A stretch of 62,423 nt of DNA, the filler included, from Asterionella formosa (taxonomy: Eukaryota), in the NCBI GenBank assembly GCA_002256025.1. It is 5 parts of 5 records of this genome, joined end to end, with 100 filler letters (N's around TTAATTAATTAA, not from the genome) between each part and the next. Parts side by side here need not be neighbours in the genome. Positions count along the whole stretch, not along the records: positions 1 to 28,359 come from NKIB01001236.1; 4 more parts are not named here. One strand, 5' to 3'. The translations under genes were made by a program, and so were the position numbers. The notes under the pieces were generated by a model that was given only the letters and a program-made list of their open reading frames with translations, did not search any database and was not told where the DNA came from. Below are positions 1,068 to 61,774 of the stretch, piece after piece (positions within the stretch are counted from its first letter, which is position 1; each line of letters opens with the position of its first letter).

Positions 1068-2936
1068 TTATAATATTCTTTTTTTCAATAGAACCAGGAT
1101 GGCATCGTCTCCATCAAGTAAGGATCGATTTGATTTGAAGAATTCTTCCGCTGTGAGGAGGAGTTTCATTTCCCAAAGAGACATTCCCACCAATGCTTGT
1201 TGAACGGAGCACCCCCCTTCTTGAACTTTGCGATCCGCCGAGGCCTTGTCGGTACGACTTAATTTTCGCATTTCTGTGGGTCCAAGTTCAAAATGAGACA
1301 AAAGTAGACTATTGGAAACGGACACGGTAATGCAAGTCGAGTCGTTTGAAATTTGGGCCTTCATGACGTATTTGTATTTTTCCCCACCGGTACCGTCTTT
1401 ATTCTTTTCAATGTTGAAGTATTTTGGTACCCCTTTGGTTTGGGTGTGAACGATAAATACCTGGTTTTGATGAGCTTCGTAGAGGGAGCGATTTGTTCTG
1501 GCCTTTTCCAAGAATTGGACCAAATCATGAAACGACATCACGGCGAAATCTTCGTCCTCTTCTGGTCCTTGTGTCAGGTCAACCATGGCGGCCGTCGTCC
1601 CTGTAGAACTTGTTGATATGGTGGTTGGACTCACCACATTGTGCAATGCTTGTGATGGAGTTGTGGCATGATTGTTGGATGATGGTGCAAAACTGTGCAC
1701 ATGAGGAGGTGCTGTTGTATGAGTCACCTTATAAGCTGTTGTTGGGGTTGCCTTATTAGTTGTTGTAGCATATGGATTAGTGTATGCTGCTGTTGTGGTT
1801 TTGTTGATGAAATTTGCTGTTGACCCAACCCGGTGTGTATATGGATTATTGGAACGACAAGGAGTCGGGGCAGCTGAATTGAGTTGTTCCGCTGGTAAGT
1901 TTGAACTTTGCATTGTGTGCGGTGTGTATGTGTTGGTAGGTCTAGCTTCTGCAAGCAGTGACAGTGGTTGGTGCTGCTGTCTTGTTTGTACATGGTGAGT
2001 GTTGGAAGGAATACTAGTATTTTGTTGATGTTGCTGTGGTTGTACGCCTTGGTGATTCCCTGTGTTGGTTGGTCCTGATATTGGAGCCTCTCCTTCCCCT
2101 TCCTCGTCATTCTCATCATCCAAAATCCCAGTGTCTGGATTCCAAATGAGCGCCTTAATAGTTGGATCCACCCCAACCCCTGCAAGTTTTTGTGCCTGCT
2201 CCAAAGCCCTGCGTTGTAGTTGGACCATCCACTCAACGGCACCTCCCAACACGGTGGTATTTCCTTCATGCAACAGTAGAACTCCTAGTCTCACTTCTAC
2301 ATCAGGTCCCGTGACTAGCAGTTTCATACCAGCACGACTGTTTGGCGACAAATTTAAAATAGGTGAAACTTCCATGGCGACAATGTCAACATGAGGCCAA
2401 TGACCATCCGACAAGTATAGTTTTAACAATCGCTTGGCTTGATTGCCAATAGCTGTAGGCGCTGATTGTGAAGCAGGCCCCAAGGAAATCCGAGATTCGG
2501 CATTGAGACTCACGTCCAAGACTTCTTCCATTTGCAACAAGAGACGGAACTCTGGTGGAAGCAGCTGGCGACAGCTGGCAGGATTGCTAGTATTAGTGTT
2601 GTCCCTTTGCGATTCCGCAATGGCTCGTCGTAAGGCAACGGCCGAAGCATCCTTCGAATGATCATCGGTAGAAGTACTTGTGGCAGACCGAACCACGTTC
2701 CTCAAGTCAGCGTGAAGAATCTGATGAAGCACATTGTCTGGCGAAGTATCGTCATTGGAATTTGCCGTAGTCGATTGCAAATACGATCGACACGCCGTCA
2801 GCCACTCATTGGAGGGAAGGACACCAGCCACGGAATGAAGAGTTTGGTACGATGACAAGGACGACGGGGCAACATCATGATGCTCGGCTGCAGTGCTGCT
2901 ATTGATCGATGCAGCATCAGCCGTGGTCATCATCAT
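1068..2936 (-). CDS. RMI1: RecQ-mediated genome instability protein 1 (BTR/STR dissolvasome subunit)
   Basis: N-terminal WL..C helix and QILHADLR are followed by OB-fold signatures LQMEEVLDVS, RLLKLYLSDG and VAMEVSPI..L...SRAGMKLLV..VRLGVLLL...NTTVLGGAVE. A Q/T/N-rich linker precedes a C-terminal OB-like domain. Confidence 0.88.
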   Translation of the reverse strand: MMMTTADAASINSSTAAEHHDVAPSSLSSYQTLHSVAGVLPSNEWLTACRSYLQSTTANSNDDTSPDNVLHQILHADLRNVVRSATSTSTDDHSKDASAVALRRAIAESQRDNTNTSNPASCRQLLPPEFRLLLQMEEVLDVSLNAESRISLGPASQSAPTAIGNQAKRLLKLYLSDGHWPHVDIVAMEVSPILNLSPNSRAGMKLLVTGPDVEVRLGVLLLHEGNTTVLGGAVEWMVQLQRRALEQAQKLAGVGVDPTIKALIWNPDTGILDDENDEEGEGEAPISGPTNTGNHQGVQPQQHQQNTSIPSNTHHVQTRQQHQPLSLLAEARPTNTYTPHTMQSSNLPAEQLNSAAPTPCRSNNPYTHRVGSTANFINKTTTAAYTNPYATTTNKATPTTAYKVTHTTAPPHVHSFAPSSNNHATTPSQALHNVVSPTTISTSSTGTTAAMVDLTQGPEEDEDFAVMSFHDLVQFLEKARTNRSLYEAHQNQVFIVHTQTKGVPKYFNIEKNKDGTGGEKYKYVMKAQISNDSTCITVSVSNSLLLSHFELGPTEMRKLSRTDKASADRKVQEGGCSVQQALVGMSLWEMKLLLTAEEFFKSNRSLLDGDDAILVLLKKRIL

Positions 2937-3251
2937 GAGGATTCTGTAAGTGATTAGAAATCTACCCGCATATTATGTATAGAATATATATACCGGTACA
3001 TGTGTTCACTTTGAACATGAAAATTAGTACCACATAATGGTGACGGGTATAATGAAGGCTATATGAACCGGTTATAAAAACCTCGCCCTTGTACGGTACC
3101 GGCAGTGGTGCTTTGACATACATATTCCAATGATTAACATGTCCCGATCATTATCCCTATTTTCTCCCATCTCATGATACGCCCTAGTATTCCAAACGTG
3201 ATACCAACACACATACACAGTCAAGGACGATTGTTATTTCATCATGATTAT

Positions 3252-4192
3252 TCAATCACTACGATCACAACAAAGTGATTTATGTTCTGCCCAATCCATC
3301 AGTTGACACTCAATTCCGCAGTCTGGAGCCATAATTTGCATAGGAGTGAAGTTATGGTTTAAAGTGAGAACAAGAATTGTAACATCAGCCAAAGTACACT
3401 CATCCTTTCAAAGACTTACATGTAACTCGTGTACATCGGGCACATTGTTTCATGTGTGTTGATGGTAGGATTGCCTTACAGGTATTGCACTGAAATCTCT
3501 TTTTCTTCCTCCCCCTCGTTACTAGTGTTGAAGTTGTACTACTAGTACTAGTACTAGTACTACTAGTACTAGTACTAGTAGCAGTGTTGGTAGCAATATC
3601 ACAACAACAACCTGACTTTTGATTTCGATTTTCGACAAGGTGACCTCGTTCTCGTTCTCGTTCTCGGTCTCGGTCTTTGTTGTTTATTGATTTCGGCATG
3701 ACAGCATCATCTTCTTGAGCTAAATAGCAAGGCATCATCTTGCCAGAACTGCTATTTGTACACCCATGACCTGCAATTGTGTCCGATTCCGATTCCGCTT
3801 CCATTCTTCGCTGTGATGGTACTCCATTCATAGCTGTGATGCTGCCACAATGATGCAAATGGGCTTCTTCCTTTGATAACTCTTTTCCATGTTTTCGTGA
3901 TCGCTGTAGCTGTAGTTGTTGCTGCTGTTGGTAGTTTCTCTTGATACATTCTTGTGACAAGCTCAGTAGATAATCCGTCTGAAGAGCTTCACGTGCTCCA
4001 GAATGTTCCCAAAGATTAAACAGCGACCAAGCGTCAATGACAGTGTTTACGTTACGATGAGATACAAGGTGACATAGATTTGGCGACTCTTGCTGGGGGA
4101 AAATGGATGAGCCATGACCAGCATCATTGAGAACTTTGAGCGCACTTAGTGAAAAGCGAAGCTTGGATGGTGGTTGATTAGCAGCAATAGTT

Positions 4193-4223
<31 letters not shown>

Positions 4224-5160
4224 AAGTTGTTGATGTTGATGTTGCTGTTGCTGTACCACTCCTTGACTTGCTGCTGCGACCACATACATTTGGCTTGTTG
4301 CTAACAACAATAGTCTTGCCATGAATGTGATTTTGCATGCAACGTAGACATGTCAACCGACATATCGTTCTTGTTCCAATAGTCATTTTGGATCTATTTA
4401 CTGCTGCAATTTGAAGTAGGGGATGAAATAGCATCCAATATTCATCGCCTTTGTTGCACAGCAGGTCATCACCATCATCATGTGGGACGGGCGCTATTTC
4501 GTTGCAAAACGGACACTTTAGCATGGACTCAACACCTGGCCAATCAAATCGACCATTTGGAGGAATTTTGAGCTGCTGCGACTCTTCTTTAGTTCTCATC
4601 ATTGACTTGAAGTGTCTGTAATTGCTTGACGTAAAATGGCACTTGCCTGCCACAGTCAGTGTCACGGCTGGCACACCAGGCATTTTATGATTGGGGTCAG
4701 CATCGCCGTTTTTAATATTCTTGTGATCCACCATCGCCATCACGCGTGGTGTTTCTTCGAGCTGCAGAATATCGCATCCCGGAAAATCAACGAAAAAGCT
4801 TTTCGTTTTGGACCTTTCTTGCCTTGCCTTCTTGTTGTCTTGGAGAATCAGAACTCTTTGTTTAGGAAGGTATTTCACCTTTGGCTGATAGTCGGATGCG
4901 TCGACTGCCAGCAACAGCGAGCAGTTGGCTTCCATCATTCCACAAGTCTCGAGTCCTGACCAACATTTTGTTGTCCTCTCTGTAGCAGCAGGAGGCGCCA
5001 TGATCATTGCTGCTGTGGTGGTGTTGGTGGTTGGTGGTGAAGTGTTGGCGGCTTCAGTCCTCTTGGCTTCAGTCAACTTGTTCTTGTGCGAAAAGTCCAA
5101 GTCATGAAGGGATGATTCTTTGCAGTTGTTAGCATCGTTGTTGCTTGGACAATGCATCAT
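3252..5160 (-). CDS. MYND-type zinc-finger protein (2 exons: 5160-3420, 3322-3252)
   Basis: Splicing a GTAAGT...CAG intron (3419-3323, 97 nt) rebuilds a full MYND finger: CNTC-x9-CARCTRVT|YCGIECQLMDWAEHKSLC. The first ATG is at 5160; the ORF-track start at 5196 is TTG. Confidence 0.8.
3536..3580. repeat. (ACTAGT/ACT)n microsatellite within the MYND ORF
   Basis: gtactactagtactagtactagtactactagtactagtactagta encodes the Ser/Thr tract TSTSTSSTSTSTSST. Confidence 0.8.
4193..4223. repeat. (GTA)n microsatellite encoding poly-Thr
   Basis: About 10 tandem GTA units within the MYND ORF. Confidence 0.85.
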
Positions 5161-6941
5161 GCATGGCAGGCCAAAATCGGAAAAGTGTGAACGCAAAGCA
5201 ATGAAAATCCTGTGTGTGAATTAACGATGGATGATATTCGCCTTTTTGTAATACTAGCCACCACGTAATAGTATACAAATGTTGTGACTGTCGCATCTCC
5301 TTCTTTTGCTGACCGATTGAATGTAGCCTCCCTTGGTATTATTACCCCATGCCTTTTACAATGTCCTCACATGCATCTTACAAAGCCGTTGATTATTTTT
5401 CTTTTCCGATGTCCGGTTAAAAAGTCGGGAATCCCGGACCATTGGGCATTTTTAATCCTTTGAACAAGTTCCTATGAATCTACCAAGAGTGAACAAAGGT
5501 ATGGCTCTCTTTGAGGACCTTGTGAAGGTCGCTATTACTGGATATATAAATATTTTTTATGTACACCGAGAATGTCGTTTATGGATAACTTCATAATAAT
5601 TGAATGACCATTGATTGATATCATCCCGGTAACTGTCAAATTGGACACTTTGGTGATGGTCTTGTTTCGCAAAAACTATACGTTCCCGTATAAGTATATG
5701 TTTTTTATGTGACATCCAAGATAAAGTCATTTTGCCACGTGCTATTGAAACTGGTACCATCAGGGTACCATTTTCAACCATGAATGGATGGGTGAACAAA
5801 AATTGCTACTACACAATTTTCGTAACGCACCTTTGTTAGCATTCTTTTGCACGACGCACGGGAGGAAATCAAATGACCACAAATATCTTGGATTGGAAAA
5901 CGTATGTACAAGGTATGCCTGGCTGGATTGATTTGTTGGAGGATTGAACGAAACAGGAGAATAAACAATTTTGTCCATCTAACAATAAAGCACACCAATG
6001 CAACAAAAGGAAGCTAAAAAGCTAGTAATATTTCCGCAATCCTACTGGCACTGCTGGTGAGCAACAACCCTTTTCACCATGGAGAACAATGTATATTTGC
6101 AGCCAGACAAACAAATAAGACATTTTCCACCACATGACCATAACTACTAGTACACTCTTTTACAATCGGCTACAATCAGGTGTAAGAGCCCAACCAAATT
6201 AACAAGGAACTCAAGGAGCAAGATTGTCTAAAAGGAATAGGGTCAGCTACAAGCAGATGAACAAACCACAAGAATTGACATGGAACTCATCAACCCATCA
6301 AAAGCATCATCAAATTGAGGAATGTTTTTGACAAAATGTCCATCTCACATCCAAATCCAATCCAGATCAATGGTTTCCAGACCATGATATTATTTCAAAA
6401 TTGACAGCAGCACCACAAGCATTGTTGTGGCCAACAAGGAAATCCTCCACCCAATCCAGACATATCCATTTCTCTAGCATACATGGTGAGCAGTGGTGCA
6501 GTCAAAAGGCTTAATCAAAGACCAAAGCTATCACAATTATTTTTACACAAAGAACTTCCACAAGAGGAAGTGACTACCCACCCAACTTTCCATCGCCTCA
6601 CCATAAATGGGGTCATGGAGTGCAACGACAGCAAATCTAGAAATAGACTAGTAGGAATGTGCAATGACAATGATTCATATATAATACTGGAGAAAAAATG
6701 ATAATAAATCATTAATTTCTGATTAAAAATTATCAACCACCTTGCTGTGTGCTACATAACTTAGAGAATCTATCCTTGCCGCAACGAAGGTAATTACATA
6801 TAAAATGGATTCGGACTACCATTTGATTCAATCTGCCACTCCAAATGTTACAGTAATAGCAGAATCATATTTAACATCGATTTTAGAAATGTACATTACT
6901 TGTAACAGCCCAACAGTATTCCCTCATATATGATTCTACCT

Positions 6942-12762: not shown

Positions 12763-14583
12763 TCATCGATTTTTCCTACTTTTTGATTTCTTGCTAGAAC
12801 TATTTCTTCTTGCTACCTCCCCGAAAATCCCCCACTGCTCTTGTAACGGAGGTCGACTCTTTGGACCCTGACGAAACCAAGAAAACCGGCCTTCCTTTAT
12901 TGATTTCTTCTTTGGTGGCAACAACCGTTTAGATTTCTTGACACCACCGCTTTCATCTCGACCTTGAGCCCTTAGGTCATCGATCAGGTCTTGCCCACGA
13001 TTCTTCAATTCCGGCATCCACGACGGCCATACCATTCCCGATACAATAGCAATACTTCCAAGCAGTACAGGTGCAATTGCAAACATACTTCCAACAAGAT
13101 ACACGGTGAGGAGGGCAACGAGTGCGGAACCAAGTTTTGCCCCAACTTCATCAAGCGCAGATTTACTGATATTGATTCGAATGCCTTTCAAGACTTCTGT
13201 CAGCTCCGATGACCCTCCCCCTGTGGCTGCATTCCATATACTCCGTACCAACCGTTGTACCCAATCAGAGATATTGTAATACCACTGTACCACTCGGTAT
13301 TTGGAATACTTGCCAAAGTTCTTGCTTCGTTCCTTTTTCAACGATTTTTCTTCTACCAACCACGCAGTTCGCATCATGGCCAATGCTTTCCGTCCAACTT
13401 CATTTTCTCGTTCCCATTTGTCAAAGGCCTTTTTCCCTTGTTGAAAGCGCGCATTCCACGCATCGATTTTATTGGTGATCTCAAATCGTTGGTCCAATTT
13501 GGAATACGATTTATAGTATTCATAGCTCAATTGTCCTGTTTTATACATGAACCAAATTCCATTGATACCATCATAGATAAGTAAATATGCCTTGGCCAAT
13601 CGTCTACCCATGGCAATGATAATATTCGCCACTGTATTGGTGGGAGTCGTTGTTTCACAATTTTTACTGACCTCATATCCAACAAATCCACCAATGATGC
13701 TCCCCAACAACCACAAGTTGCTTGAAACTGTAACCGAAAGGAGCAATGCAAAAATCATGGATCCTGAAACTGAAGATCCAATTTTAACATTTTGAAATGA
13801 AAGGAGTGATGGTTGTGGAAATGCCACTGTTGATGAACGGCGCATGGAAATGTTGGGGGGTGTTGTTGTTGTTGTTGTCCTACTGGTGGTAGTGCCTCGT
13901 AGTACTAAATCCGTTGCCTTGACATATGATTTTAATATTTGTTCCAATTCACCTAAAGTGAGTGTTTCATTGAGGGCTTTTGTATTGATTGGCGGTGGAG
14001 TTGATGCGATTGTTGTTTTGGGTGATACCATTGACGTTTGTCGTTCTTTTTCAATGTAATCATCCCATGAATCAAGAAAAGCGCCTTGAGGATTTCTGGA
14101 TTGTCTCGTACTGTTGCTCTTGTTTGTGCCATTACGTTCCGATATTATTGAGTTATTTGTTTCGGTGACAGGACTCTCCGTGACATTTGTCACATTCTGT
14201 ATTACAGATGATGGTTGGATGGATTGCTGTACCACCTGCAATGTATCCTCCTCCTGTGGCTTGCTACTCTTCTTCTGATGTTGATTATTAATATTGTTCT
14301 TATTAGTAGCAGTATCATCATAATGGTCTGATACTTCCACGGTTGGATGCTTCCGTTTGTTCCATACATCCCACCGAAAGGGCTTGATGGCATAATTGGA
14401 TACGAATTGCCCATTTTGTCGTTTTTGTTCTGAACGAGTTGTTTCCATAGAATGCAAACTCCTAGAGTTCGAAACGAAGCCTGCCCAGACGCCAATCCCA
14501 TGTTGTTGTAGAAGTATATGTATCATAAAGGCGACAACAAGAAATCGGCATCGGCATCCTGATGATGGTTGGAACCACTTCAT
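12763..14583 (-). CDS. Uncharacterised membrane protein, possibly plastid-targeted
   Basis: 606-aa ORF with a hydrophobic N-terminus followed by ..VWAG-FVS, a long disordered S/T/N region and two pairs of predicted TM helices. No family recognised. Confidence 0.7.
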   Translation of the reverse strand: MKWFQPSSGCRCRFLVVAFMIHILLQQHGIGVWAGFVSNSRSLHSMETTRSEQKRQNGQFVSNYAIKPFRWDVWNKRKHPTVEVSDHYDDTATNKNNINNQHQKKSSKPQEEDTLQVVQQSIQPSSVIQNVTNVTESPVTETNNSIISERNGTNKSNSTRQSRNPQGAFLDSWDDYIEKERQTSMVSPKTTIASTPPPINTKALNETLTLGELEQILKSYVKATDLVLRGTTTSRTTTTTTPPNISMRRSSTVAFPQPSLLSFQNVKIGSSVSGSMIFALLLSVTVSSNLWLLGSIIGGFVGYEVSKNCETTTPTNTVANIIIAMGRRLAKAYLLIYDGINGIWFMYKTGQLSYEYYKSYSKLDQRFEITNKIDAWNARFQQGKKAFDKWERENEVGRKALAMMRTAWLVEEKSLKKERSKNFGKYSKYRVVQWYYNISDWVQRLVRSIWNAATGGGSSELTEVLKGIRINISKSALDEVGAKLGSALVALLTVYLVGSMFAIAPVLLGSIAIVSGMVWPSWMPELKNRGQDLIDDLRAQGRDESGGVKKSKRLLPPKKKSIKEGRFSWFRQGPKSRPPLQEQWGIFGEVARRNSSSKKSKSRKNR

Positions 14584-14759
14584 ACTTCACTTTTGCTGTT
14601 GTAATTTCTGTTTGGATCATCACACAACAGAGTACAACGTCAATGTTTACGAAATAGTACTGCCGGTATACGTACGACGGTTTAGATTTGTATTTGTAAT
14701 CATTGATTGAGCGATGCTGCCTGCCCGTACCTACCCCTGGTACCTAGTGCTGGAACGTC

Positions 14760-14848
14760 CAAGTTGCGGCAATTTTACTGCAGGTATAGATTTAGCTATA
14801 AATTATCCAATATTAAATTATTATTTTAAGCAAAATGACTGTAACTTG
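14760..14848. mobile_element. ~89-bp MITE-like inverted-repeat element, copy 1
   Basis: caagttgcggcaatttt...aaaatgactgtaacttg are imperfect terminal inverted repeats. The element is colinear with 61687-61774, including the internal atttagctat...atattaaatt. Confidence 0.65.
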
Positions 14849-15064
14849 CTGGTATCAGAACCTAGTAGAATGGATCACACCGGTACAAGTATATGAGAAA
14901 AAGCAGCCAACGAGCAAACAAGGTGATCCGCCCACGAGCCCAGGTGATCATTTGGTCACCACGACACAATCACGAGCAAAGTGATGCATTAATTAAAATA
15001 AGAAATTGAGCCACTTCTACCGTACTCTAGTTCCCTATCATAATTATATTACTATAAGTCTATG

Positions 15065-15126
15065 GGGGAACGGCTTAGTGGTTAGCACACCAACCGTGGT
15101 GGCGGGTTCGATTCCTGCATTCTCCA
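15065..15126 (+). ncRNA. tRNA-like cloverleaf (Pol III A/B boxes) with a 4-nt anticodon-position loop; tRNA-derived SINE head or small ncRNA
   Basis: Acceptor GGGGAA/TTCTCC; D arm GCT-TAGTGGTT-AGC (A box); CACCA-ACCG-TGGTG hairpin; T arm GCGGG-TTCGATT-CCTGC (B box); a T5 run begins about 7 nt downstream. No 7-nt anticodon loop, so it is not a canonical tRNA. Confidence 0.7.
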
Positions 15127-15851
15127 CTTGTCTTTTTCATCTAGTCCCTACATACGGTTCCGGGGGGGGGGGTGCGGCTGACGAAAAGACAGGTCCCGTG
15201 ATACCGTACGGACGAATAAAACCGGTATGAATTGTGTCCATCTATTTGGTGGGCCCGAGTGCATTTATTGGATAGCTTTGTGCTATAAAATTTCATTGAC
15301 ATTTTTTTACTATGAGTCGATGTTCAATTGGTACGCTGACTTCGCGAGCGAGGTGTCATTTTTTGGGATCACAGGCGCGCCGGCGTGAATGTAACATTCA
15401 GATACTACAGACCGTCTGTCCCTAATTGTTCTTTTCCATGGGAATGAACCTTTATACAGCTACTATGGTCCTTTATGGGCGAACATCCATACTTGGCCTG
15501 CGTGACATTACTTGCGATATATTTCGGTGGATCAACAAATGCGAAGACTTGACGGGTAGACCAAAAACGCGCGCCGATCCAACATATAAATACCCTCAAG
15601 TTGGTAGATGGTATTGAGCCATGGAAAAATTACCAAATTTTTATTATTTATAAAGAATCTCTATTATACCGGTACATAGTTTTTTACGAAGAAAAAGTGA
15701 ACATCACTCACTTCAGGTTGCCTTGCGCGCTACAAAAAGTGTGCATAACATAACAATAAATCCGTAGCGAGTCTCTATTTTTATACACGTTTGCAGTTGG
15801 AGATTCACCACAACAAACTTTTGTATTGAATATATAAGATTTGCATTCACC

Positions 15852-16808
15852 ATGGGCCTTGAACACCACGTGCCTCTGTATCCAGATGCAACGCCACTTC
15901 CTATTCTGGTCCATGTGACTGCTCCTGCCAGTTTGCCTGCTGGATATACATTTGAAGCCGAGTTGAATGGCGACAAGACGAGAACCTTTACTGTTGAAGT
16001 GGTGAGCACGGACAAACTACACTTTTGTTGGTTCTTGCTTGCTACCCATTGCTAACATGCTTTCCTGTGTCTCGTTGACTTTAGCCCGAAGGAGGTGTCA
16101 AGGAGGGTCAAATGTTTTTGACCCCTTTGCCTGAATCCATGAATGGCTTTCGCCTTGCCATTCCTACTGGTGGCTGGAAAGATGGTTTCTTGGGGTGTTT
16201 CAATGCTGGATTCTGTCATCCATCTATTTGGTGTGCCTTTTGTTGTCCTCAAAGTGCGTAGATAAACGTTCATTCATTCACAATGATATTTCTACTACCC
16301 ATGTATTGCTATATCCCCCCTGTTTGGACGCTCACACACATTTCCTCGTCTTTCTTTGACAGTCCTCATGGCTCAAGTGATGACTCGCATGAACTTGACG
16401 TGGTTGGGTGATCCTGGTCCACGAGTCTCCACTCAAAACACATTCAAGGTTGTATTTACTATTGTGATGAGTTACATTGTGTACTCGACAGCTTTGGAAT
16501 TGGCCTCGCTCGAGTACACGTCCGTCGGTGTCGATTTGCCAACGTATTTGCTTGTCCTCAAGACGATTGGAAGTGTCACCTTTACGGTCTATGCCTTTTA
16601 TAGTCTTTGCAAGACGAGACAAAATGTAAGAGCTAGATATTCCATCCCCACAGCTCAATGTGGAGGGATGGAGGATTGTGTCTGTGCCTTCTTTTGCACG
16701 TGCTGCACAGTCAGTCAATTGGCCCGTCATACTGGAGAATATGAAACCTATCCTGGTGTTTGCTGCTCCGAAACAGGACATCCCAAGGGAACTCCTTCGA
16801 CAGTGTAG
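15852..16808 (+). CDS. PLAC8-family (cysteine-rich, PCR/FWL-like) membrane protein (3 exons: 15852-16001, 16085-16253, 16363-16808)
   Basis: GT-AG introns 16002-16084 and 16254-16362 join the frames to give WKDGFLGCFNAGFCHPSIWCAFCCPQILMAQVMTR...RQNVRARYSIP...EDCVCAFFCTCCTVSQLARH, the PLAC8 signature with two inserted TM helices. Confidence 0.88.
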
Positions 16809-17041: not shown

Positions 17042-19948
17042 TTAGGCATGTTCTACCCATGGACCTTGCAATGAAAGTTTCACGTCAATTGGTGGCTTGT
17101 CCTTGCATGTTACAGTAACAGATAACTTGCAAAAGACTTTAATCTCAATTGTACTCCACGTCTTGCTTTTGCTGATCGCAGTCAAACGAATCCGCTTCTC
17201 ACCACCCTCCACTCGTCCCGACTTGTGCACGTATGGTTCAAAGGTAACAAGATCCTTATGCTCGGCCAAAAACACCATGCCCGAAACGCCAATCGAAGGA
17301 ACATAGACTGTAAATGTTGTTTCTCCAACGGATAAGACCACCCCTAACGCATCACGAAGCGGGTGTTTTTTCAGATAGAGTGATAAAAAGACACGATCAC
17401 TTCGGTCTTGCGCATACTTGCTTGACATTTTTTTCTCATTGCAATGAGAACAAATGGATTGAATATCGCCTTGGTCCCAGTGAAATTCATCGACAGTGCC
17501 ATCCAGTGTGGCTTGAAGCAACCGATGAACAATGATATCGGGATACCGGCGAATAGGACTAGTAAAGTGTGTATAATAAGGAATATTGAGTGCAAAGTGC
17601 TTCCATTCTTCTTGATTGAAGTTTCCGGCAGCCATGTATTCGGCAGCTCGCATGGGGACCATTAGCATTTCAGTAACGCATTGCATGACCAATTCGTCAT
17701 CACATTCTCGACCAAGACGACTTAGTGACTGCTGAAGCGTCTGAGATGACTCCAAATCAATGACAAAGCCCTTACCTTCCATGGCGATTTGAACCGCGTT
17801 TTGGAGGCCTTGCATGAGAGGAGGTGGATGATGGCGAAGGCATGCCAAAGGACCCGTATGTGTTATCAATCTCTGAGCAACGAGAAAATTGGCAAGGAGC
17901 ATGTACTCTTCAATCAGCTTATTGGAATCACGAATGGGGTAGGGGGCACATAGGTTGGGCGTTTCTCCATCGGCATCTAGTCGAAAAGTCATTTTGACCC
18001 CTGTTAATGCAATCGCTCCATTGTCAAACCGAAGCTTACGTCGGGCCATGGCCACCTTGTGCATTAAGCGCACATCAGCTGCAACTTGATCCACCGAGTG
18101 GTGTCCTGTGGGACGCCGACTGGAGGGCCAAAGAGTTTCGTCTAAATTGCCATTCGTGTCCAAAATGGTGCCATCAATAATATTTTGTGCCGTGGCATAG
18201 TCCAATCGAGCACACGATTTGATGACGGTCCGCCCATACCACACTTCGTCACCAGTCAACGTCCCATCCATGTTCATGGTCCATACACATGAAAACGCCA
18301 ATCGCTCTACGTTTTCATTCAAACTACATGCCACTTCACATAGTGGGCGGGGCAGCATGGGAAGGACTCGATCCACCAAATACACCGTGGTAGCACGACG
18401 TTGGGCTTCGTTGTCGACAGGATGCTCAGGTTGGACAAAGTAGGAAACGTCAGCAATGTGTACTCCCATTTCAACGGTACCGTTGGGTAGTTGTGTTATG
18501 TGCAAGGCGTCATCTAAATCTCTAGCAGTGGTGGGATCAATGGTAAAGATGCGTTGGGTGCGATAATCCCTCCTACCCACGTACATCTCCGGGGTTGGTT
18601 TCCATCCAATATCATCGTGAGATGTGTATAGGCCGCTAGCCACCACGTCTTGCACATCCTTGAGAACATCACTTTCAAATTCCCCATGATCAACTCCATG
18701 CTCAATTAAAAGTGCCATAGTTTCATCTTCCACATTGCAGGAATGTCCAATGAATTGAACATTTGTGCATGGTGGCCAAACATGTCCCTCCTTCCAAGAT
18801 CCATATACATATTCAGCTCGGTAGATCCCATCCTCTCCTTCCGTTGGTTTAAAGAATGGTGGTGTCAGAAATTGAGGCAACGACTTTTTCGATGGTGTCA
18901 AGAGGTATAGTTTAGTACCATCTCGTCTGGTCATGAATTTCAAGAGGCCGACAATTGTTTTTTTGGGAGTGATTCCGAATGCGGTAGAAGGGTCATAATT
19001 TGGAGTCTGAATTTCGCATGTCAAGTGTAGTGTGGGTGGAAGTACATGTACCACACGCCCCCGACGACGGGGTAATGGTCCTCCAGCAGCAGCCATGTTT
19101 GCCGTGTCCATCATGGGAGAAAAATCGGTACCCCGACGAATGGGTACCAATGGATTCCACAAATGAACTTGGGTGCTATCATCTTGCCACATGTGCTCTT
19201 CTTGGAGTGTCAAAGCAGCAACTTGATTTGCATTGTCAATGTCGTTGTTCTCGTTGTCGACTTCATTGTCGTCCTCCTCGTCTTCATCTTCATTGTCGTC
19301 TTCCTCATCCAAAAGCTTAACAAATACTAAATCTCCGTGCAAGGCTCGGTTTCGTTCCAAATTAGTCGCAACAAGAATATCTTCTTTTGTGGATCCCCGA
19401 TCACATGTAACAAAGGCTGAGGCGTCTTTCCCTGGTACGACTCGAAGTGTCCCTCTCACCAAGTTGTTGCTGGTATACAATGCCATGCATTCCTTGTATG
19501 CCAAATGAGGTGGAAAGGTCTTTTTGTTTGTCTTGTTGTTATTGTTGTTGCTGTTGTTATTGTTGTTGTTGCTGTTGCTTTTGTATGATTTATTTTGCTG
19601 TGCTAGTGGAGAGGATGAGAGTGCTGCTTGCTGTTGTTGTTGTTGTTTGTTTCTGTGTTGACTTCCTTTACTGTTTCGAAGTTTATTCCGTTCCTTTCCA
19701 CGAGTTTTGGCAGCCGCTGCGACTGCTGCAGCTGCTACAGTATCAATAGGCTTTTGTGTTTTGCTACGACCTCGATTCCTTCCAGCCTTGTTAGTAATAG
19801 TTGTAGTCGTAGTAGCAGTAGCAGTCGTATCATGACTCCTTGTGACATTGCCATCATTTTCATTTTCATTCGGATTCACATTCGGATTCACATTCACATT
19901 CAGATTCAGATTCTTGATCAATTCACTGTAGGGTTGTTGCTGTTTCAT
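17042..19948 (-). CDS. DIS3L2: DIS3-like exoribonuclease 2 (RNase II/RNB family)
   Basis: CSD motif RNRALHGDLVFV; RNB catalytic motif IFTIDPTTARDLDDALH (DIS3L2-type); GVHIADVSYFV; HFALNIPYYTHFTSPIRRYPDIIVHRLL; no PIN domain; low-complexity N/Q N-terminus. Confidence 0.92.
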   Translation of the reverse strand: MKQQQPYSELIKNLNLNVNVNPNVNPNENENDGNVTRSHDTTATATTTTTITNKAGRNRGRSKTQKPIDTVAAAAVAAAAKTRGKERNKLRNSKGSQHRNKQQQQQQAALSSSPLAQQNKSYKSNSNNNNNNSNNNNNKTNKKTFPPHLAYKECMALYTSNNLVRGTLRVVPGKDASAFVTCDRGSTKEDILVATNLERNRALHGDLVFVKLLDEEDDNEDEDEEDDNEVDNENNDIDNANQVAALTLQEEHMWQDDSTQVHLWNPLVPIRRGTDFSPMMDTANMAAAGGPLPRRRGRVVHVLPPTLHLTCEIQTPNYDPSTAFGITPKKTIVGLLKFMTRRDGTKLYLLTPSKKSLPQFLTPPFFKPTEGEDGIYRAEYVYGSWKEGHVWPPCTNVQFIGHSCNVEDETMALLIEHGVDHGEFESDVLKDVQDVVASGLYTSHDDIGWKPTPEMYVGRRDYRTQRIFTIDPTTARDLDDALHITQLPNGTVEMGVHIADVSYFVQPEHPVDNEAQRRATTVYLVDRVLPMLPRPLCEVACSLNENVERLAFSCVWTMNMDGTLTGDEVWYGRTVIKSCARLDYATAQNIIDGTILDTNGNLDETLWPSSRRPTGHHSVDQVAADVRLMHKVAMARRKLRFDNGAIALTGVKMTFRLDADGETPNLCAPYPIRDSNKLIEEYMLLANFLVAQRLITHTGPLACLRHHPPPLMQGLQNAVQIAMEGKGFVIDLESSQTLQQSLSRLGRECDDELVMQCVTEMLMVPMRAAEYMAAGNFNQEEWKHFALNIPYYTHFTSPIRRYPDIIVHRLLQATLDGTVDEFHWDQGDIQSICSHCNEKKMSSKYAQDRSDRVFLSLYLKKHPLRDALGVVLSVGETTFTVYVPSIGVSGMVFLAEHKDLVTFEPYVHKSGRVEGGEKRIRLTAISKSKTWSTIEIKVFCKLSVTVTCKDKPPIDVKLSLQGPWVEHA

Positions 19949-44984: not shown

Positions 44985-45047
44985 GGGGAATAGCTTAGTT
45001 GGTTAGCTCACCTTCCCAGGTGGTGGGTTCGATTTCAGCTTACTCCA
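44985..45047 (+). ncRNA. Second, more degenerate copy of the tRNA-like cloverleaf element
   Basis: GGGGAAT AGCT-TAGTTGGTT-AGCT CACCT-TCCC-AGGTG GTGGG-TTCGATT-TCAGC TTACTCCA is colinear with 15065-15126. TATA-like actataa lies upstream of both copies. Confidence 0.62.
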
Positions 45048-45314
45048 CCTGCTTTGTCACAATGGAATCATTGTGTTTTGGTATGTGCAATCAGCCATTG
45101 ATAACAAGGAGTGTAATGGTATTCTTACGGGATATGGGGACGGAATCCTCGATCCAGGCAGTCCTATGTAAGGCATTTGCTTGTGTTGAATATTCTTTCA
45201 AGTCGACCACGGCAGAACACAGAACACATAATGTGAATCTCAAAAAGCATCAGCCATCACACAATTTTATAAATTTCAAAAATCTTCACTCTACCGGTAC
45301 TCAAGAATAACATC

Positions 45315-46855: not shown

Positions 46856-49800
46856 CTATTTCTTCTTTTTACCTGGTTTGTTGACCTTCTTCTTGCTAAT
46901 TTGTGTTTCGTTCTCTTCGTCGGCAGCCATTTGTTCTGCCATGGCTGAAGCCGCTGCCTCCTCTTCTTCTTTCTGCTTGTCGGCAATGAGTCGACTTCCT
47001 TGTTCAGTACTTAGTTTTAAGTATTTCTCAAGGGAAACAGCGCAGCTCTTTGTTAGCTCATGTTCACGGCCAGCGACAAGAGAATGGATTTGATACGCCC
47101 GTGATACTGTATCTACAGCAGCTTTGTACTGACCAAGCTGTGCCAATAGATATGCAGTGCTCATAATTATCATTCCTTCAACGAGTCGATCACAGCAATT
47201 ACGAGACGACGCTTCCTGGTAGCACCGAAGGGAACTAACACCATTTGATCCTTCGTTGGCGAAGATTGTTCCCAACCTGTGGAAGGCATTAGGTAGTTCT
47301 GAATATCTTGGACCTCCGAGAAGTTGCATAAGGTAAATTGAGGCTCTCAAATGCTTGACACCAGCTTCAATCTTACCATCAGCAATCAAAAAATGAGAAA
47401 GCGTCGAGTGGCCAGTCATTGCATCCGCACAATCGAAACCTTCGATTTGGACAGTAATACTAAGAGAGCGAGCAGCATTAAACACGGCGAGTCCGAATTC
47501 CTTCGCCTCAAAAAGGACAGCGGCCGACAAATCGAGGCATCTTGCAATATTGATGTGAAGATGACTATCCGTAACCCGCTGGAACATATTAGCCGCCTCT
47601 TGCGCGAGCTCCAAAGCAGCAGGCAAGTTGCGGCGAGAATAATGCACATGAGCACCTTCCAGCAAATGTTTCGCTTCAGGAAGCATAATAAATAAAGATG
47701 GCGTGGTGTATAATGGACCGGCTGAACAAACAACAAAACCCTCACCGGGTTGTGCCGCACAGTGTTTCATACGAGGAACGATATCGATGACATCAACTGG
47801 GGATATCGGGAATGAAGCATTCATCCTGCCACCTTCAGTACTATCACCAGTGCAAAGGCATTTCCCACCGATAGCATAGTTCTTGGCAGCAAGTCGGACT
47901 CCAGTCCTCTGGCAAACTCGGCGCAAAAGAGGCACATGCAAAGCTCGTTTAGATTGTCCACCTTGGTTGTATAGCGTCAGTTTGTGGCGGAAGCGTCTTC
48001 CTATGTCCCGTTCAATGTCCTCCCAAACCTCCTTTCTTCCTCTGACCGGTACAGGAACAGCATCACCTCCACCACCCACGTCAAACATCGTCAGACCTGT
48101 GAAATCGTCATCGTCCGGAGCGGTCGATTTCGAGGAGCTCGCTTGCTTACGAATGCGAGTCTCCGTGTCTGCTGCAGTTTCTTCTCCCTCAGAAACAAGC
48201 GCGCTTAGAAATGAAGCAACGATTTGGGCGGGCTGGCTAGCTCCGACGCCACCGTTTTCCGACAAATAAGAATCGAGAACATGCTTCGAAGCTCTTGCAA
48301 TCATTTCTGTCTCAAGCAGTTCCAGCCAACATAGGGGCATCATTCGACGAGGTAGACGAGTTACCTTCTTGGTCTGGACATCAATAAGTGCCAACTTGTC
48401 CTTCTCTTCCTCAACAATCGCTAACGTTGCCAGGCGACCTAGGTATCGGCAGTTGATTCCTCTCTGGTGCAACATGTCAGTCAGAGCACGACCTTCGCTT
48501 GGTAACTGAGAGCCATCACCTTCTTTTACCTGGGTCGTGAGGGCGGGAAGAACAACATCCCAAAGATACATGGATGCCTCACGAACTTGCACCATGTCCA
48601 CCTGTAATTGTTTGACGGCGTCATCGTCCACACCAACAAGTGAACGAAAGTTTGGAAGGAACACGTTGACATTTAATCGTAGTGATTCCAAGTATTTTTC
48701 CTGCTCTTCAGTCAACCCATCAACCATTTCAGGCTTCTCAATTTCTTCGTCAAGTACTTTCTCGTTTCCTTCATCGTGGCTTTCATCTCCCTTGGTTTCT
48801 TCTTCTTTTTCCTCTGGCTTTTCGTCCGACGCTTCCAGATCCCCTGCTTTCGTAGTTGATTCGTCCTTAACGTTTTCCTTCGTCGCCTTTAATTCACTCA
48901 TCTTCTTGCGAGTCAGTTGGGTTACTAGTTCGGACCGAAGTACCGCCAAGATGAATTCGTCATCGTCAAGTGAAGAAGGGACGAAGTGGCGTCCTTTACC
49001 ATGACCGAAATTATTCAAAACTTCTTCCCATTTCCCAGTTCCACCCTCCGACTCGGGTACCCAATTGGCATCTCTTGGAGTAAGCCGTGGCGTATCGAGG
49101 ATATACGTACGCTTATCACTGCCTTGGATTCCTTTGGCCTCAACGGGAGCACAAATTCTGGTAGTCGGGGAATCGTTTTCTGTTTCTTTTAGTGTGACAG
49201 GCAAGGGTTCGCCGGTAGTGGGAGGGTACTTACGGAATTCGTCAATCTCAGCAATCCGTTCATCCGTCAAAGGTTTGGTGGGGACGACTCTAGTCGCCAC
49301 CATAAACGCCTTTCCAAAGTACTTCTCGAACAATTCATGGGTATCCTTGTCCCATGCGAGAGGCGATGAGGCTTCTATGGCTCCATAGAGGAGCCTGTGA
49401 CTATTCTCGCCCATCAAGATACCAGGAAGCACACTTTGGCAAACAAATCGAACTCCCAAATAATCAATCACGACAATTCCGAGAGTGTATAGTCCTTCCA
49501 TATCCATTCGATGGAGAGATGCCATACACTGAGCATCCCTCGAAGCTGACTTTCTCGCTGCCAAATCACCCTTAGAAAGTTTAAACGTCTCCACACCAGA
49601 GTCAACAGCTCGAGAAAAAAATATATTATTGTGCAAATACACATGAGATCGAGCCGACTCATTCGGGTTCATGGGAGAAATCTGGCCATGGAAAATGGCC
49701 TTGGCACCAATCAACGATGCCTCGCCAAACTCCATCATCGCTTTGTGAATCATGCGGGCTCGTTCCACTCGTTCCGTGGTATTGGAGGAAGGCATTTCTC

Positions 49801-51307
49801 GAGCGGACTGGATTTCTTCGTTCCAATCACGGGTTGCGCCGGAGCGAATGTCAAGGCCGAAAGTGTTTGCAATATCCTCATCCGCTCTCGTGGGATTGTA
49901 AGAATGCAATTCATTGTGAGTCCACCCTTCCTCGCTGTCTTTTGAGTCCGGTAACGATACCAGCCAGGAAGGACGGAGAATGACTTGATCTAACCCCTGC
50001 ATGGATGTAGCAGCCGATGGATCCTGAAAGCCTCCAAAATCACCACGGACAGCCACTTGGTACAATGAATGAAGCTGACCCTCCGTTTGTGAGAATTTAC
50101 TTGTCAGTACAGAACGCTCCTTGGCAGCCACCAGAGCAGCTTTCCATGCCAAGCGAAAAGAATCTGAGATTTGCAGGATACAGTCCAAAAGCTCATGAGA
50201 AAAGCAGTGGTTTTGTGCTGGAGACGGATCGAATTTGCAGGGCTCTGTGGAGGTTTGATTAACGTAAAAACCAGTTGGAATAGCAGTGATATTGAAAATA
50301 CTTCCATCGGGCACTGCTATCTCCAAATACGCCAGGTCACCCATCAACCTACGCTGGGACGGGGGAGGATGAAAGCCACTGTAACGAACAGTACACTTGA
50401 CTCGAGTGATTTCATCAAGCTCATTGAGCTTAGCTATACCAGTGTTCACAGTGGAAGTTTCGGTCGAAAGACTGGCGGGTTTGACATCGTCAAGGCCTTC
50501 CATGTGTTCGCTTTTGATTTTGGCCTTGTTTTTAGAACTTCTTTTCTTGGCCGATTTGGACTGATTGACAGTGTCACCATTTTTGTCGATAACTTCAAGA
50601 GCAGATACTTTTCTTGGTACTTCTTCGCCACAAGCAAGGTAAAAGAAATCTTTCAAGTTTGTGGACTCCAAGCCGAGGGGCTTGTCGTCGTTAATACTGG
50701 ATGGCGATGATTCCTTATCGTTACTTTCCTCTTTTTCCTCATCTTGTTTGGGCTTAAGAGAAGTCACGACAGGTGCATTCCCATCTAATAACTGGCGCAA
50801 GCGAAGAATGTGGTCTCTGACACCAGCGACGTCATATCTCTCCAAGACGATACGAAAGCCAGATCCATCCTTCATCCCTTCGCGTAAAAGTGGCGACAAA
50901 TCCCCATATTCATCTAGAACGACACTATTTTTTTCGCTAGAGACCTCTAGACTCTTGAATGACACAGGAACTGCCACGACAGCATTAACGCCTGTATAGG
51001 GAGAAGGGAGTTGATGGTCGTCCTTGTCGAGTGTCGTCCCGGCGACACCGTCAACCTCCAATACGAATCGAAAATTGGTCAAGTGTGCATAGCCGATGAT
51101 TTCAGAGAGTGCTGCGCGAAGGAGCTGGACAGGTTCTTCGGAACTCAATGGAGGAAGCTGCACAACATCTAGACTTTCGTCTCGGTTCAATAGGGTTCCC
51201 TCCTTTTGAAGGGGAGGTAAGATGCAAAGATTCTTAATACTTGGCGACTCTTCCGTGAGAATAGGACCTAGGTCTTCTGCGGTAGTTGCTTGGTTGTCGT
51301 CTGACAT
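46856..51307 (-). CDS. CLU1: Clustered mitochondria protein (CLU1/CLUH)
   Basis: SGFHPPPSQRRLMGDLAYLE, TGFYVNQ, RDWNEEIQSAREMP, YLHNNIFFS, VIDYLGVRFVCQSVLPGIL, KGIQGSDKRTYILD..RLTPRDAN, LHQRGINCRYLG, EMIARASKH and C-terminal TPRs. Likely ATG at 51307 (MSDDNQ). Confidence 0.93.
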   Translation of the reverse strand: MSDDNQATTAEDLGPILTEESPSIKNLCILPPLQKEGTLLNRDESLDVVQLPPLSSEEPVQLLRAALSEIIGYAHLTNFRFVLEVDGVAGTTLDKDDHQLPSPYTGVNAVVAVPVSFKSLEVSSEKNSVVLDEYGDLSPLLREGMKDGSGFRIVLERYDVAGVRDHILRLRQLLDGNAPVVTSLKPKQDEEKEESNDKESSPSSINDDKPLGLESTNLKDFFYLACGEEVPRKVSALEVIDKNGDTVNQSKSAKKRSSKNKAKIKSEHMEGLDDVKPASLSTETSTVNTGIAKLNELDEITRVKCTVRYSGFHPPPSQRRLMGDLAYLEIAVPDGSIFNITAIPTGFYVNQTSTEPCKFDPSPAQNHCFSHELLDCILQISDSFRLAWKAALVAAKERSVLTSKFSQTEGQLHSLYQVAVRGDFGGFQDPSAATSMQGLDQVILRPSWLVSLPDSKDSEEGWTHNELHSYNPTRADEDIANTFGLDIRSGATRDWNEEIQSAREMPSSNTTERVERARMIHKAMMEFGEASLIGAKAIFHGQISPMNPNESARSHVYLHNNIFFSRAVDSGVETFKLSKGDLAARKSASRDAQCMASLHRMDMEGLYTLGIVVIDYLGVRFVCQSVLPGILMGENSHRLLYGAIEASSPLAWDKDTHELFEKYFGKAFMVATRVVPTKPLTDERIAEIDEFRKYPPTTGEPLPVTLKETENDSPTTRICAPVEAKGIQGSDKRTYILDTPRLTPRDANWVPESEGGTGKWEEVLNNFGHGKGRHFVPSSLDDDEFILAVLRSELVTQLTRKKMSELKATKENVKDESTTKAGDLEASDEKPEEKEEETKGDESHDEGNEKVLDEEIEKPEMVDGLTEEQEKYLESLRLNVNVFLPNFRSLVGVDDDAVKQLQVDMVQVREASMYLWDVVLPALTTQVKEGDGSQLPSEGRALTDMLHQRGINCRYLGRLATLAIVEEEKDKLALIDVQTKKVTRLPRRMMPLCWLELLETEMIARASKHVLDSYLSENGGVGASQPAQIVASFLSALVSEGEETAADTETRIRKQASSSKSTAPDDDDFTGLTMFDVGGGGDAVPVPVRGRKEVWEDIERDIGRRFRHKLTLYNQGGQSKRALHVPLLRRVCQRTGVRLAAKNYAIGGKCLCTGDSTEGGRMNASFPISPVDVIDIVPRMKHCAAQPGEGFVVCSAGPLYTTPSLFIMLPEAKHLLEGAHVHYSRRNLPAALELAQEAANMFQRVTDSHLHINIARCLDLSAAVLFEAKEFGLAVFNAARSLSITVQIEGFDCADAMTGHSTLSHFLIADGKIEAGVKHLRASIYLMQLLGGPRYSELPNAFHRLGTIFANEGSNGVSSLRCYQEASSRNCCDRLVEGMIIMSTAYLLAQLGQYKAAVDTVSRAYQIHSLVAGREHELTKSCAVSLEKYLKLSTEQGSRLIADKQKEEEEAAASAMAEQMAADEENETQISKKKVNKPGKKKK

Positions 51308-51848
51308 GGTACAACGGTAATGATTTGAAACAAAAAATCCAGGCGCTGGAATGACTTTGTTAATAATGTGGTGAGAATGGGTGATGGTTGTACACTTTGT
51401 AGACCTGACTTTTCCTGGCTGCACAACTTATAATGATGTACTCCCTAGCTGTGAGAGAGTGTCTGAGTGATAGGGATTGAGTGACGAGACCTGATGGTAT
51501 TTGGAGTTGATTGTAGCCTCGTTGTGAAATTTCAGTTGTGCAAGAGAAGGCGGTGATGTGGTGAGCGAGCGAGGATACCTGTATATCCTGATGTGGAAAA
51601 ATGAGGGGACAGCAGGGCAGAGATGGAGCTAGGGCTAAAGATTTATTAATTAGATAACCGACGGCATGGAAGAACAGGAAAGAGTCTGGAGTTTGGACTA
51701 CAGAATTGTAACAAGACGCTATACGCATTATTTTTCGATTTATTTATGTGAACAGCTATCGTAGATAGAGGTAAACATGTCATTTTGAATACGCACCGGC
51801 CGCAATGTAGAAACACGTCCACCTCCTGCTCGGAGTACCTGGTACTTG

Positions 51849-60928: not shown

Positions 60929-61686
60929 ACTAATGTCATACAGTGTAGTGATTTGGTAGCAAGAGTGGTCTGATTTGATTGCCGCTGTAAATATACATCG
61001 CCTCCATGGTGAGAGGGGGCGCTTATTAGTGCTAGTAGGATTGCTGTGATAGTGCCAGGATAGTTTCTTTTGTTTATATTTGGATGCTTTGACAACTAAA
61101 GGAAAAATGATTAATTAAAGCAAAAGATCTCAAACAAGGTATATATTAGCTTATAACAATGCCGCAAAAAGAATTTATTGTGAAATAGGTCAGTGACATT
61201 GTACTGAAGAAATACTGTGGGACGTTTTTAGTGAAATACAGCATATTGATACACCATATTCACTTGGCATACAGTTGAGTATTTCGATATTGAAAGGACA
61301 GTATACCAGTATACTGATTCTGCTGACAAAGCAGTATTCTCATTCTCACTCACTCATTCTTTCAGCCTATGAAAACTAAAGATGACGCAGGCAATCATGG
61401 CAGTTATAATAAAGCAATATACAAAATTGATGATGTGATTTTGCGCTTAATGCATACTACATAGCTTTGTTTTTTCATTTTGTTTTTGCTAGCCTTATAC
61501 TAACTATGAACAGGGATTTCGCTCTACAATGCTTTTAAAAGACATGCCGGATTTTTTTTGAGATTCGTACATGATAGTAGCAGTATACTGGCAAGCTAGA
61601 CGAGTAAACTGGCAAAATTTTAGAATAATAGCTACTGGTATGGCATTTGGAAACAAATATAGAATACCAGTATACAGCAGGTACTG

Positions 61687-61774
61687 CAAGTTGCGGTAAT
61701 TGTGCTGAAACTAAATATTTAGCTATCTTTTTCCCATATTAAATTGCTTATTTAAGCAAAATGACCGCAACTTG
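61687..61774. mobile_element. ~88-bp MITE-like inverted-repeat element, copy 2
   Basis: gcaagttgcggtaattgtgctgaa ... ttaagcaaaatgaccgcaacttgc is a 24-bp inverted repeat with 3 mismatches, homologous to 14760-14848. Confidence 0.68.

Follow-up and report, generated by a model that had tools for sequence, protein, structure and literature searches.

A high-copy repeat with a tRNA-like head in a diatom intergenic region, very probably a tRNA-derived SINE

Genes and repeats of the locus

The window, by which we mean the whole stretch of DNA that was analysed (62,423 nucleotides), is gene-dense and carries long open reading frames (ORFs) on both strands. The element under study is a short tRNA-like sequence present twice in it, here referred to as copy 1 (starting at 15065) and copy 2 (starting at 44985). 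Copy 1 is inserted between a 606-aa ORF and a Cys-rich gene that begins about 550 bp downstream of it, the 5' end of which was matched with zero differences by contigs of two public RNA runs (X9 and X10). A 1522-aa ORF, which we take to resemble a CLU ('clustered mitochondria') homologue, and a DIS3L2-like exoribonuclease each consist of a single long ORF, an example of the paucity of introns in the window. The genes referred to here are:

15853-16808, plus strand: Cys-rich gene with an ATG at 15853 and apparent short introns, presumably PLAC8-like by its motif
17042-19948, minus strand: DIS3L2-like RNB-domain exoribonuclease (Protein Atlas: eukaryotic DIS3L2-like RNase), a single long ORF
46856-51424, minus strand: 1522-aa ORF, a single long ORF

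The diatom host given in the first-pass annotation of this DNA holds, as judged from the protein matches of a 398-aa ORF that adjoins copy 2. All nine of its organism-named matches were to diatoms, each at 50% identity or less, and closer relatives at 68-72% identity were listed with the organism not given. The diatoms matched were Fistulifera, Skeletonema, Phaeodactylum, Bacillariaceae, Cylindrotheca, Cyclotella (three rows, one of them by the gene-model prefix CCRYP), Thalassiosira and Chaetoceros. Public runs containing the stretch mostly bear freshwater or lake metagenome labels.

The window also holds a MITE-like palindrome of roughly 90 nt (61686-61775), with 36-nt arms that are 78% complementary. 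A degraded copy of it was found at about 14760-14856, where 14803-14855 is 85% identical to 61729-61781. This palindrome copy is itself high-copy near 14786-14839 (depth of 294,723 in the public DNA run X1) and lies 200 bp upstream of copy 1, in the same intergenic region.

Extent of the repeat at copy 1

To delimit copy 1, contigs of two public DNA runs (X1, X3) and of the two RNA runs were aligned to positions 14300-15900 at a likeness of at least 80%. For X1, 4081 pieces aligned, some of them on the separate repeat at 14786-14893. Summed X1 depth in the four bins that cover 15056-15271 was 410,819, 567,060, 344,489 and 532,022; it was 62,240 in the bin 15272-15325, and in the flanks it ranged over 788-1756 (bins 15326-15900) and 1088-1532 (bins 14894-15055). 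The smaller run gave the same picture, with summed X3 depths of 1974-5220 over 15056-15271, 246.7 in the bin 15272-15325 and about 15-17 in the flanks (16.6 for 15326-15900 and 15.4 for 14894-15055). Summed contig depth is not the same as copy number, and other organisms may contribute to these figures. Since depth in both runs nevertheless differs from that of the flanks by two to three orders of magnitude, the stretch from 15065 to about 15306 is a high-copy repeat.

Both ends of this repeat could be placed. Loose contig ends upstream of 15065 agree with one another at only 0.41-0.42; flanks therefore vary among the copies and 15065 is the true 5' end, which coincides with tRNA position 1. 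Downstream of 15279 the family consensus agrees at 0.80-0.87, runs into a T-run and ends ...ATTGAAATTTTT, and depth is back to baseline in the next bin past this tail. Long contigs of both X1 and X3 span the two junctions of the copy 1 insertion. The first-pass annotation had stated that no SINE body or tail is visible. For copy 1 this does not stand, as the repeat continues to about 15306 and is enclosed by a target-site duplication; the body was overlooked because copy 2 shares the first 75 nt only. The parts of the element and its borders are listed below, where L005 and L008 are two metagenome relatives described in the next section:

15049..15064, plus strand: left copy of the target-site duplication (TTACTATAAGTCTATG), abutting the head
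15065-15306, plus strand: the complete insertion at copy 1, very probably a SINE, about 242 nt (head, trailer, body and T-run)
15127..15139, plus strand: trailer of 13 nt with an internal T5 at 15133-15137, where the homology of copy 2 and L005 to copy 1 ends
15140..15301, plus strand: body unrelated to tRNA, of high contig depth and 81% identical to L008
15161-15173, plus strand: G11 run in the body, 4-6 G shorter in many family copies
15302..15306, plus strand: T-run tail that closes the element on its 3' side and is a putative Pol III terminator, preceded by ...AAATTTCATTGACA
15307..15322, plus strand: right copy of the target-site duplication (TTACTATGAGTCGATG), abutting the T-run

The T5 run that had been noted just downstream of the head is present at 15133-15137. 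It begins seven bases past the head, and the family consensus retains it (agreement of 0.79-0.85 among loose ends at 15167). The terminal T-run extends by two further T's that are shared with the right copy of the duplication. The G11 homopolymer in the body of copy 1 is an expanded run, most other copies having fewer G's.

The duplication is 16 bp long, matches at 14 of 16 bases and exactly abuts both ends of 15065-15306. When the search was restricted to the 46-nt zone of falling depth, none of 5000 shuffles of the upstream 16-mer reached a 13/15 match, and none of 5000 random 16-mers drawn from the window a 12/14 match. An unconstrained search across 390 nt gave 11/12, which was equalled by 8 of 300 shuffles. 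The TATA-like actataa that had been pointed out upstream of copy 1 falls inside the left copy of this duplication (15049-15064). For copy 2 the best candidate duplications were insignificant (49/300 and 208/300 shuffles), and at L005 a candidate of 10/12 abutting the head is suggestive only, as 19 of 300 shuffles reach 10/12. A significant target-site duplication was accordingly obtained for copy 1 alone.

Rfam searches over the body returned nothing relevant, whether on 15100-16100 (E<=5) or on 14950-15250 (E<=10). Translated searches (tblastn) of L008 against 15114-15290 gave minus-strand matches of 64-65% identity that suggested a coding exon; the frames contain stops and this candidate was rejected, the matches being due to the 81% DNA identity within the high-copy repeat. 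A 19-nt stretch of the body (15237-15255, CCATCTATTTGGTG...) matches 16219-16237 in the coding region of the PLAC8-like gene at 95% (E = 0.1), which is probably chance.

A mobile or repeated element of another class could in principle contain a tRNA-like piece by chance. It might be a MITE or other non-autonomous DNA transposon, part of a Helitron, or a solo fragment from a non-autonomous LTR element in which a small-RNA-like segment is present. The tail is T-rich, the partner LINE of the 15065-15306 element is only postulated, and the high-copy MITE-like palindrome 200 bp upstream indicates that this intergenic region gathers DNA elements. However, the ends of 15065-15306 are not mutual inverted repeats, judged by reading the sequence, and the tRNA-like part stands exactly at the 5' end, as it does in SINEs. 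A duplication of 16 bp is also longer than most DNA transposons produce, and Helitrons insert without any. We give an origin of this kind only a small chance.

The tRNA-like head and its relatives

The head of copy 1 reads as the cloverleaf that the first-pass annotation had proposed, 62 nt with a tetraloop and without a variable loop. Its parts, and the second copy, are:

15065..15126, plus strand: tRNA-like head of the element, 62 nt, from sequence and minimum free energy (MFE) fold
15065-15071 pairing with 15119-15125, plus strand: acceptor stem, 7 positions
15072-15082, plus strand: A-box-like motif, CGGCTTAGTGG in copy 1 and TGGCTTAGTGG in L005
15073-15086, plus strand: D arm, with a 3-bp stem and an 8-nt loop
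15088-15092 pairing with 15097-15101, plus strand: stem of the anticodon-arm substitute (CACCA/TGGTG), with the loop ACCG at 15093-15096
15102-15118, plus strand: T arm (GCGGG-TTCGATT-CCTGC), the variable loop being absent
15105-15115, plus strand: B-box-like motif, GGTTCGATTCC
15126, plus strand: discriminator A
44985..45059, plus strand: copy 2, decayed, with a head at 44985-45047, a 12-nt trailer and an interrupted T-run

The box-like motifs are named from A- and B-box consensus motifs as we assume them. The proposed cloverleaf is both the MFE and the centroid fold of copy 1 (RNAfold). Its acceptor stem has six pairs in this copy, including G3:U70, and C7 faces A66. At -21.8 kcal/mol, the fold energy lies within the range expected by chance (z = -1.08) and is matched by 29 of 200 shuffles.

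Copy 2 was confirmed as a second copy, with 79% identity to copy 1 across 76 columns (blastn). Its MFE fold is not the cloverleaf, and three stem pairs are non-standard (5-58, 7-56 and 41-53). An Rfam search, even at E<=10, gave no tRNA match for it. The blastn homology ends at 15139 in copy 1, at 45059 in copy 2 and at L005:1304. The body of copy 1 was not found downstream of copy 2 (score of 20 vs a null of 24.7), and pairwise local alignments of copy 2 and L005 with the copy 1 body and with one another gave no shared body, 182, 120 and 136 of 200 shuffles scoring as high. Copy 2 is probably a relic from an earlier insertion of this head family, reduced to the head and in decay. A covariance model of four heads (copy 1, copy 2, L005 and L008 head A), as the first-pass annotation had proposed building from its two copies, was run over the window and five loci and recovered the two known copies in the window and no additional one, the best other match scoring 9.8 bits (E 0.72).

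Relatives were sought in metagenomes with a pattern that leaves the anticodon-arm substitute free (TAGT, 0-1 N, GGTTAGC, 15-19 N, GGGTTCGATT). It retrieved 15 loci, namely two of this family (L005 and L008), eight of an unrelated tRNA-head repeat and five other sequences. The head of L005, from a marine metagenome, is 91% identical to copy 1 over 75 nt and reads as the majority of the freshwater family at the three major variable positions (15092, 15095 and 15128), and all of its flanks are unrelated to the window. At L008, positions 1-174 are 81% identical over 183 columns to the copy 1 body (window 15113-15292), and the locus outside its head and body stretch is likewise unrelated to the window. 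A body 23-mer and a head pattern each gave 0 loci in prokaryotic genome contigs and in viral contigs, collections of little bearing on a diatom repeat.

L008:1-330 (minus strand) carries two tandem heads, a full-length but decayed head A and, about 30 nt later, a head B that is followed by the SINE body. Head A is of the copy 2 type and has lost the top of the acceptor stem; head B lacks its middle, from the second half of the anticodon-arm substitute through the first half of the T arm. The two heads look like nested or adjacent insertions.

Among the five heads in assembled context, three (copy 2, L005 and L008 head A) consist of the 75-nt head plus trailer only, with the body absent. These short units look like either products of termination at T5 or the ancestral unit that was given a body later.

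That the head is not a canonical tRNA, as had been stated, was borne out. ARAGORN found no tRNA in the whole 62-kb window, nor in the four heads under default or mitochondrial settings; calls at relaxed thresholds (Leu, Cys, '???', Ser) fell on differing strands and registers and were discarded as noise. The Rfam tRNA model aligned to copy 1 end to end but at 18.8 bits, below its gathering score of 29, and the mascRNA/menRNA model RF01684 reached 12.6 bits vs a gathering score of 42.5. Rfam gave no matches at gathering thresholds in the entire window. The loop at the anticodon position has 4 nt, or 6 nt with the fifth pair open, where a canonical tRNA has 7 nt on a 5-bp stem.

The acceptor stem reads GGGGAAY/ATTCTCC and bears G3:U70 and A73. 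G3:U70 (pair 3-60) occurs in three of four heads, and the last base is A in all four. Both are identity marks of alanine tRNA, and they suggest that the head may have descended from an alanine-type tRNA.

One explanation, already named in the first-pass annotation, is that both copies arose in place, as pseudogenes left by deletions in a single ordinary tRNA gene, and are not mobile at all. Neither copy does have a variable loop or an anticodon loop that could be used, and copy 2 is visibly decayed. Against this, the head is repeated at high depth along with a non-tRNA body, the 16-bp duplication encloses the entire 242 nt of copy 1, the identical deletion geometry recurs at loci from other samples (L005 and L008), and ARAGORN detected no intact parent tRNA in the window. 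With a non-tRNA body at such depth and the duplication disfavouring it, we regard this explanation as highly improbable.

Covariation was assessed in the same four heads over 20 pairs, or 80 cells. The structure is paired in 88.8% of cells (9 of 80 unpaired), compared with 88.5% when the 3' partners are shuffled, and 308 of 500 shuffles score as high. A double change occurs at one of the 20 pairs. This is the A-T to T-A swap closing the loop, previously taken as compensatory; the pair is unpaired in two of four heads, and its covariation measures are equalled by 272 of 500 shuffles. In the X1 family depth, 15092 is C in 78%, T in 19% and the A of the window in about 2.5%, and 15097 is A in 20%, C in 3% and otherwise the T of the window. 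L005 combines C with T, and copy 2 combines T with A. Taking L005 as the guide to which bases co-occur in the same copies, the commonest combination is probably C opposite U, with U-A confined to a minor subfamily. What the copies share is a 4-bp CACC/GGTG stem that encloses six free bases. Departures from the head consensus are mostly breaks, and the stem mismatches of copy 2 and L008 head A are uncompensated. There is no sign of selection on the structure of the head.

These observations bear on the possibility that the 75-nt units form a family of Pol III genes, borrowed by the SINE as its head, whose tRNA-like product has no anticodon and is perhaps charged by alanyl-tRNA synthetase through G3:U70 and A73. 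The unit is laid out as a complete Pol III gene, in which a T5 follows the A- and B-box-like motifs and begins seven bases past the head, and the head-only units of copy 2 and L005 both stop at 15139. Three of four heads retain G3:U70 together with A73, and the marine L005 matches the freshwater majority at 15092, 15095 and 15128, but similarity between copies is predicted by recent retroposition and is therefore no argument for selection. Covariation is absent among the four heads, the acceptor and T stems of copy 2 and L008 head A are broken without compensation, and head B of L008 has lost half of the molecule. The cloverleaf is the MFE fold of one head in four (copy 1), those of copy 2, L005 and L008 head A folding otherwise. 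No RNA contig of X9 or X10 matched the head of copy 1 at 95% or more, although these are polyA or cDNA contigs in which a small RNA is undetectable either way. The RNA contigs represented diverged family copies only, embedded in longer contigs, and the sole piece of 99% or more in each RNA run sits on the neighbouring gene.

Since the copies decay uncompensated and a discrete RNA is not in evidence, a Pol III gene family of this kind seems improbable to us. The family of structured Pol III tRNA-mimic RNAs entertained in the first-pass annotation is not supported by the same observations. The fuller proposition, that the 75-nt unit is an expressed, alanine-chargeable but non-decoding Pol III RNA common to marine and freshwater diatoms from which the SINE has grown, has a slim chance of being correct. 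If true, the eukaryotic nucleus would encode in this unit an equivalent of a charged minihelix or of the tRNA-like domain found in tmRNA.

A probable tRNA-derived SINE and its counterparts

Copy 1 is very probably the 5' head of a complete tRNA-derived SINE insertion of about 242 nt in a diatom nuclear genome, with copy 2 as an older head-only relic. We favour a tRNA-derived SINE because the tRNA-related head lies exactly at the 5' end and is joined to an unrelated body and a T-run, and because the element is flanked by a 16-bp duplication, is high-copy and has decaying copies. As in tRNA-derived SINEs, dispersed copies with unrelated flanks share a tRNA-related 5' head and a body, with a flanking duplication. 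Many copies, target-site duplications and a common tail, which had been named beforehand as the signature of a SINE, are seen at copy 1 as high depth, the 16-bp duplication and a shared body and tail. The same features bear out the SINE half of the earlier suggestion of a very short tRNA-derived SINE, but at about 242 nt the element is not very short. A tRNA-derived SINE together with its target-site duplication accounts for all that the first-pass annotation had commented on, from the tetraloop and its compensatory closing pair to the 'TATA' upstream and the terminator downstream.

We infer Pol III transcription and LINE-mediated insertion of the element, and an alanine-type tRNA origin of its head. 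The head would retain an internal Pol III promoter in the A- and B-box-like motifs of its D and T arms, and a source copy may have been transcribed by Pol III from +1 at the position equivalent to 15065. A partner LINE would then have provided the enzymes for reverse transcription and insertion of the transcript, which ends in a U-run, and the 16-bp duplication would have arisen in the process. The short anticodon arm could be the remnant of a region that the promoter can spare, and would drift for that reason, with no designed tetraloop; the fifth pair would usually be a mismatch, leaving the 4-bp stem as the only one family-wide.

Several points count against the SINE reading. The duplication is seen at copy 1 alone, and summed contig depth is an imperfect guide to copy number that other organisms may inflate. 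The T5 kept in the family consensus should stop at least part of Pol III transcription before the body. Three of the five heads are short at the 3' side, with the body absent, whereas LINE-mediated copying usually truncates 5' ends and not 3' ends. The tail is a T-run, in place of the more usual A-rich or simple-repeat tail.

Compared with tRNA-derived SINEs in general, the element shares the short length, the tRNA-related head with A- and B-box-like motifs exactly at the 5' end, the unrelated body, target-site duplications (4-16 bp range) and a large number of dispersed copies, the old ones in decay. It differs in the T-run tail, in the T5 straight after the head and in the diatom host, and its LINE partner is postulated only. 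Rodent ID elements and BC1 RNA are a SINE family derived from tRNA-Ala. The element here resembles them in the acceptor marks of alanine tRNA (G3:U70, A73) and in an anticodon region unlike that of a working tRNA, but its sequence is unrelated, the ID tail is A-rich, and an expressed master such as BC1 is a feature of ID. The mascRNA/menRNA family (RF01684) is similar in its length of about 60 nt, cloverleaf-like form, shortened anticodon arm and missing variable loop. In contrast, the element here does not lie at the 3' end of a long non-coding RNA, and it is multi-copy, flanked by a duplication and devoid of covariation.

In the literature, SINEs were viewed as missing from most unicellular eukaryotes, as cited in passages of PMC5859163 and PMC7466962. 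The tRNA-related AfuSINE2 families of Aspergillus fumigatus (PMC5063351) are an example of tRNA-derived SINEs. Among diatoms, 13 'putative SINE' annotations in Phaeodactylum tricornutum Phatr3 were called the first in a diatom (PMC5859163), and SINEs were reported in Cyclotella cryptica v2, with the remark that their roles in diatoms are poorly understood (PMC7466962). These annotations agree with the present element in host group and element class. They are calls of automated repeat pipelines, and head structure, duplication and a family description are absent from the main-text passages concerned (PMC5859163, PMC7466962); by its depth signal, the family here is also much more abundant than the 13 putative SINEs of Phatr3. 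In passages of PMC12803021 the mention of SINEs is limited to GC content. Searches of open-access text retrieved neither a diatom SINE family described with this head nor a diatom tRNA-like small RNA.

A tRNA-derived SINE is thus an ordinary kind of repeat that is rarely described in detail in diatoms, where well-characterised SINEs are scarce and the papers cited above give automated 'putative SINE' calls only. A defined SINE family, high-copy in a freshwater diatom and with marine relatives, would imply a partner LINE that is active now or was recently. It would offer presence/absence markers for diatom populations and phylogeny, and would scatter Pol III promoter motifs across gene-dense intergenic regions. 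For genome annotation, such heads should be masked as repeats and not reported as novel tRNA-like genes.

The eight metagenome loci outside this family (L001-L004, L006, L007, L012 and L015) belong to an unrelated repeat, probably a tRNA-derived SINE of another organism. Its head is tRNA-like, the A-to-B spacing is as short as here, and a conserved motif (CCACTATTCCATTGGGTAG) lies just downstream. Because a similarly shortened head is found in this unrelated repeat, the short geometry is recurrent in tRNA-head repeats, in line with the statement of the first-pass annotation that shrunken anticodon arms occur in SINE heads.
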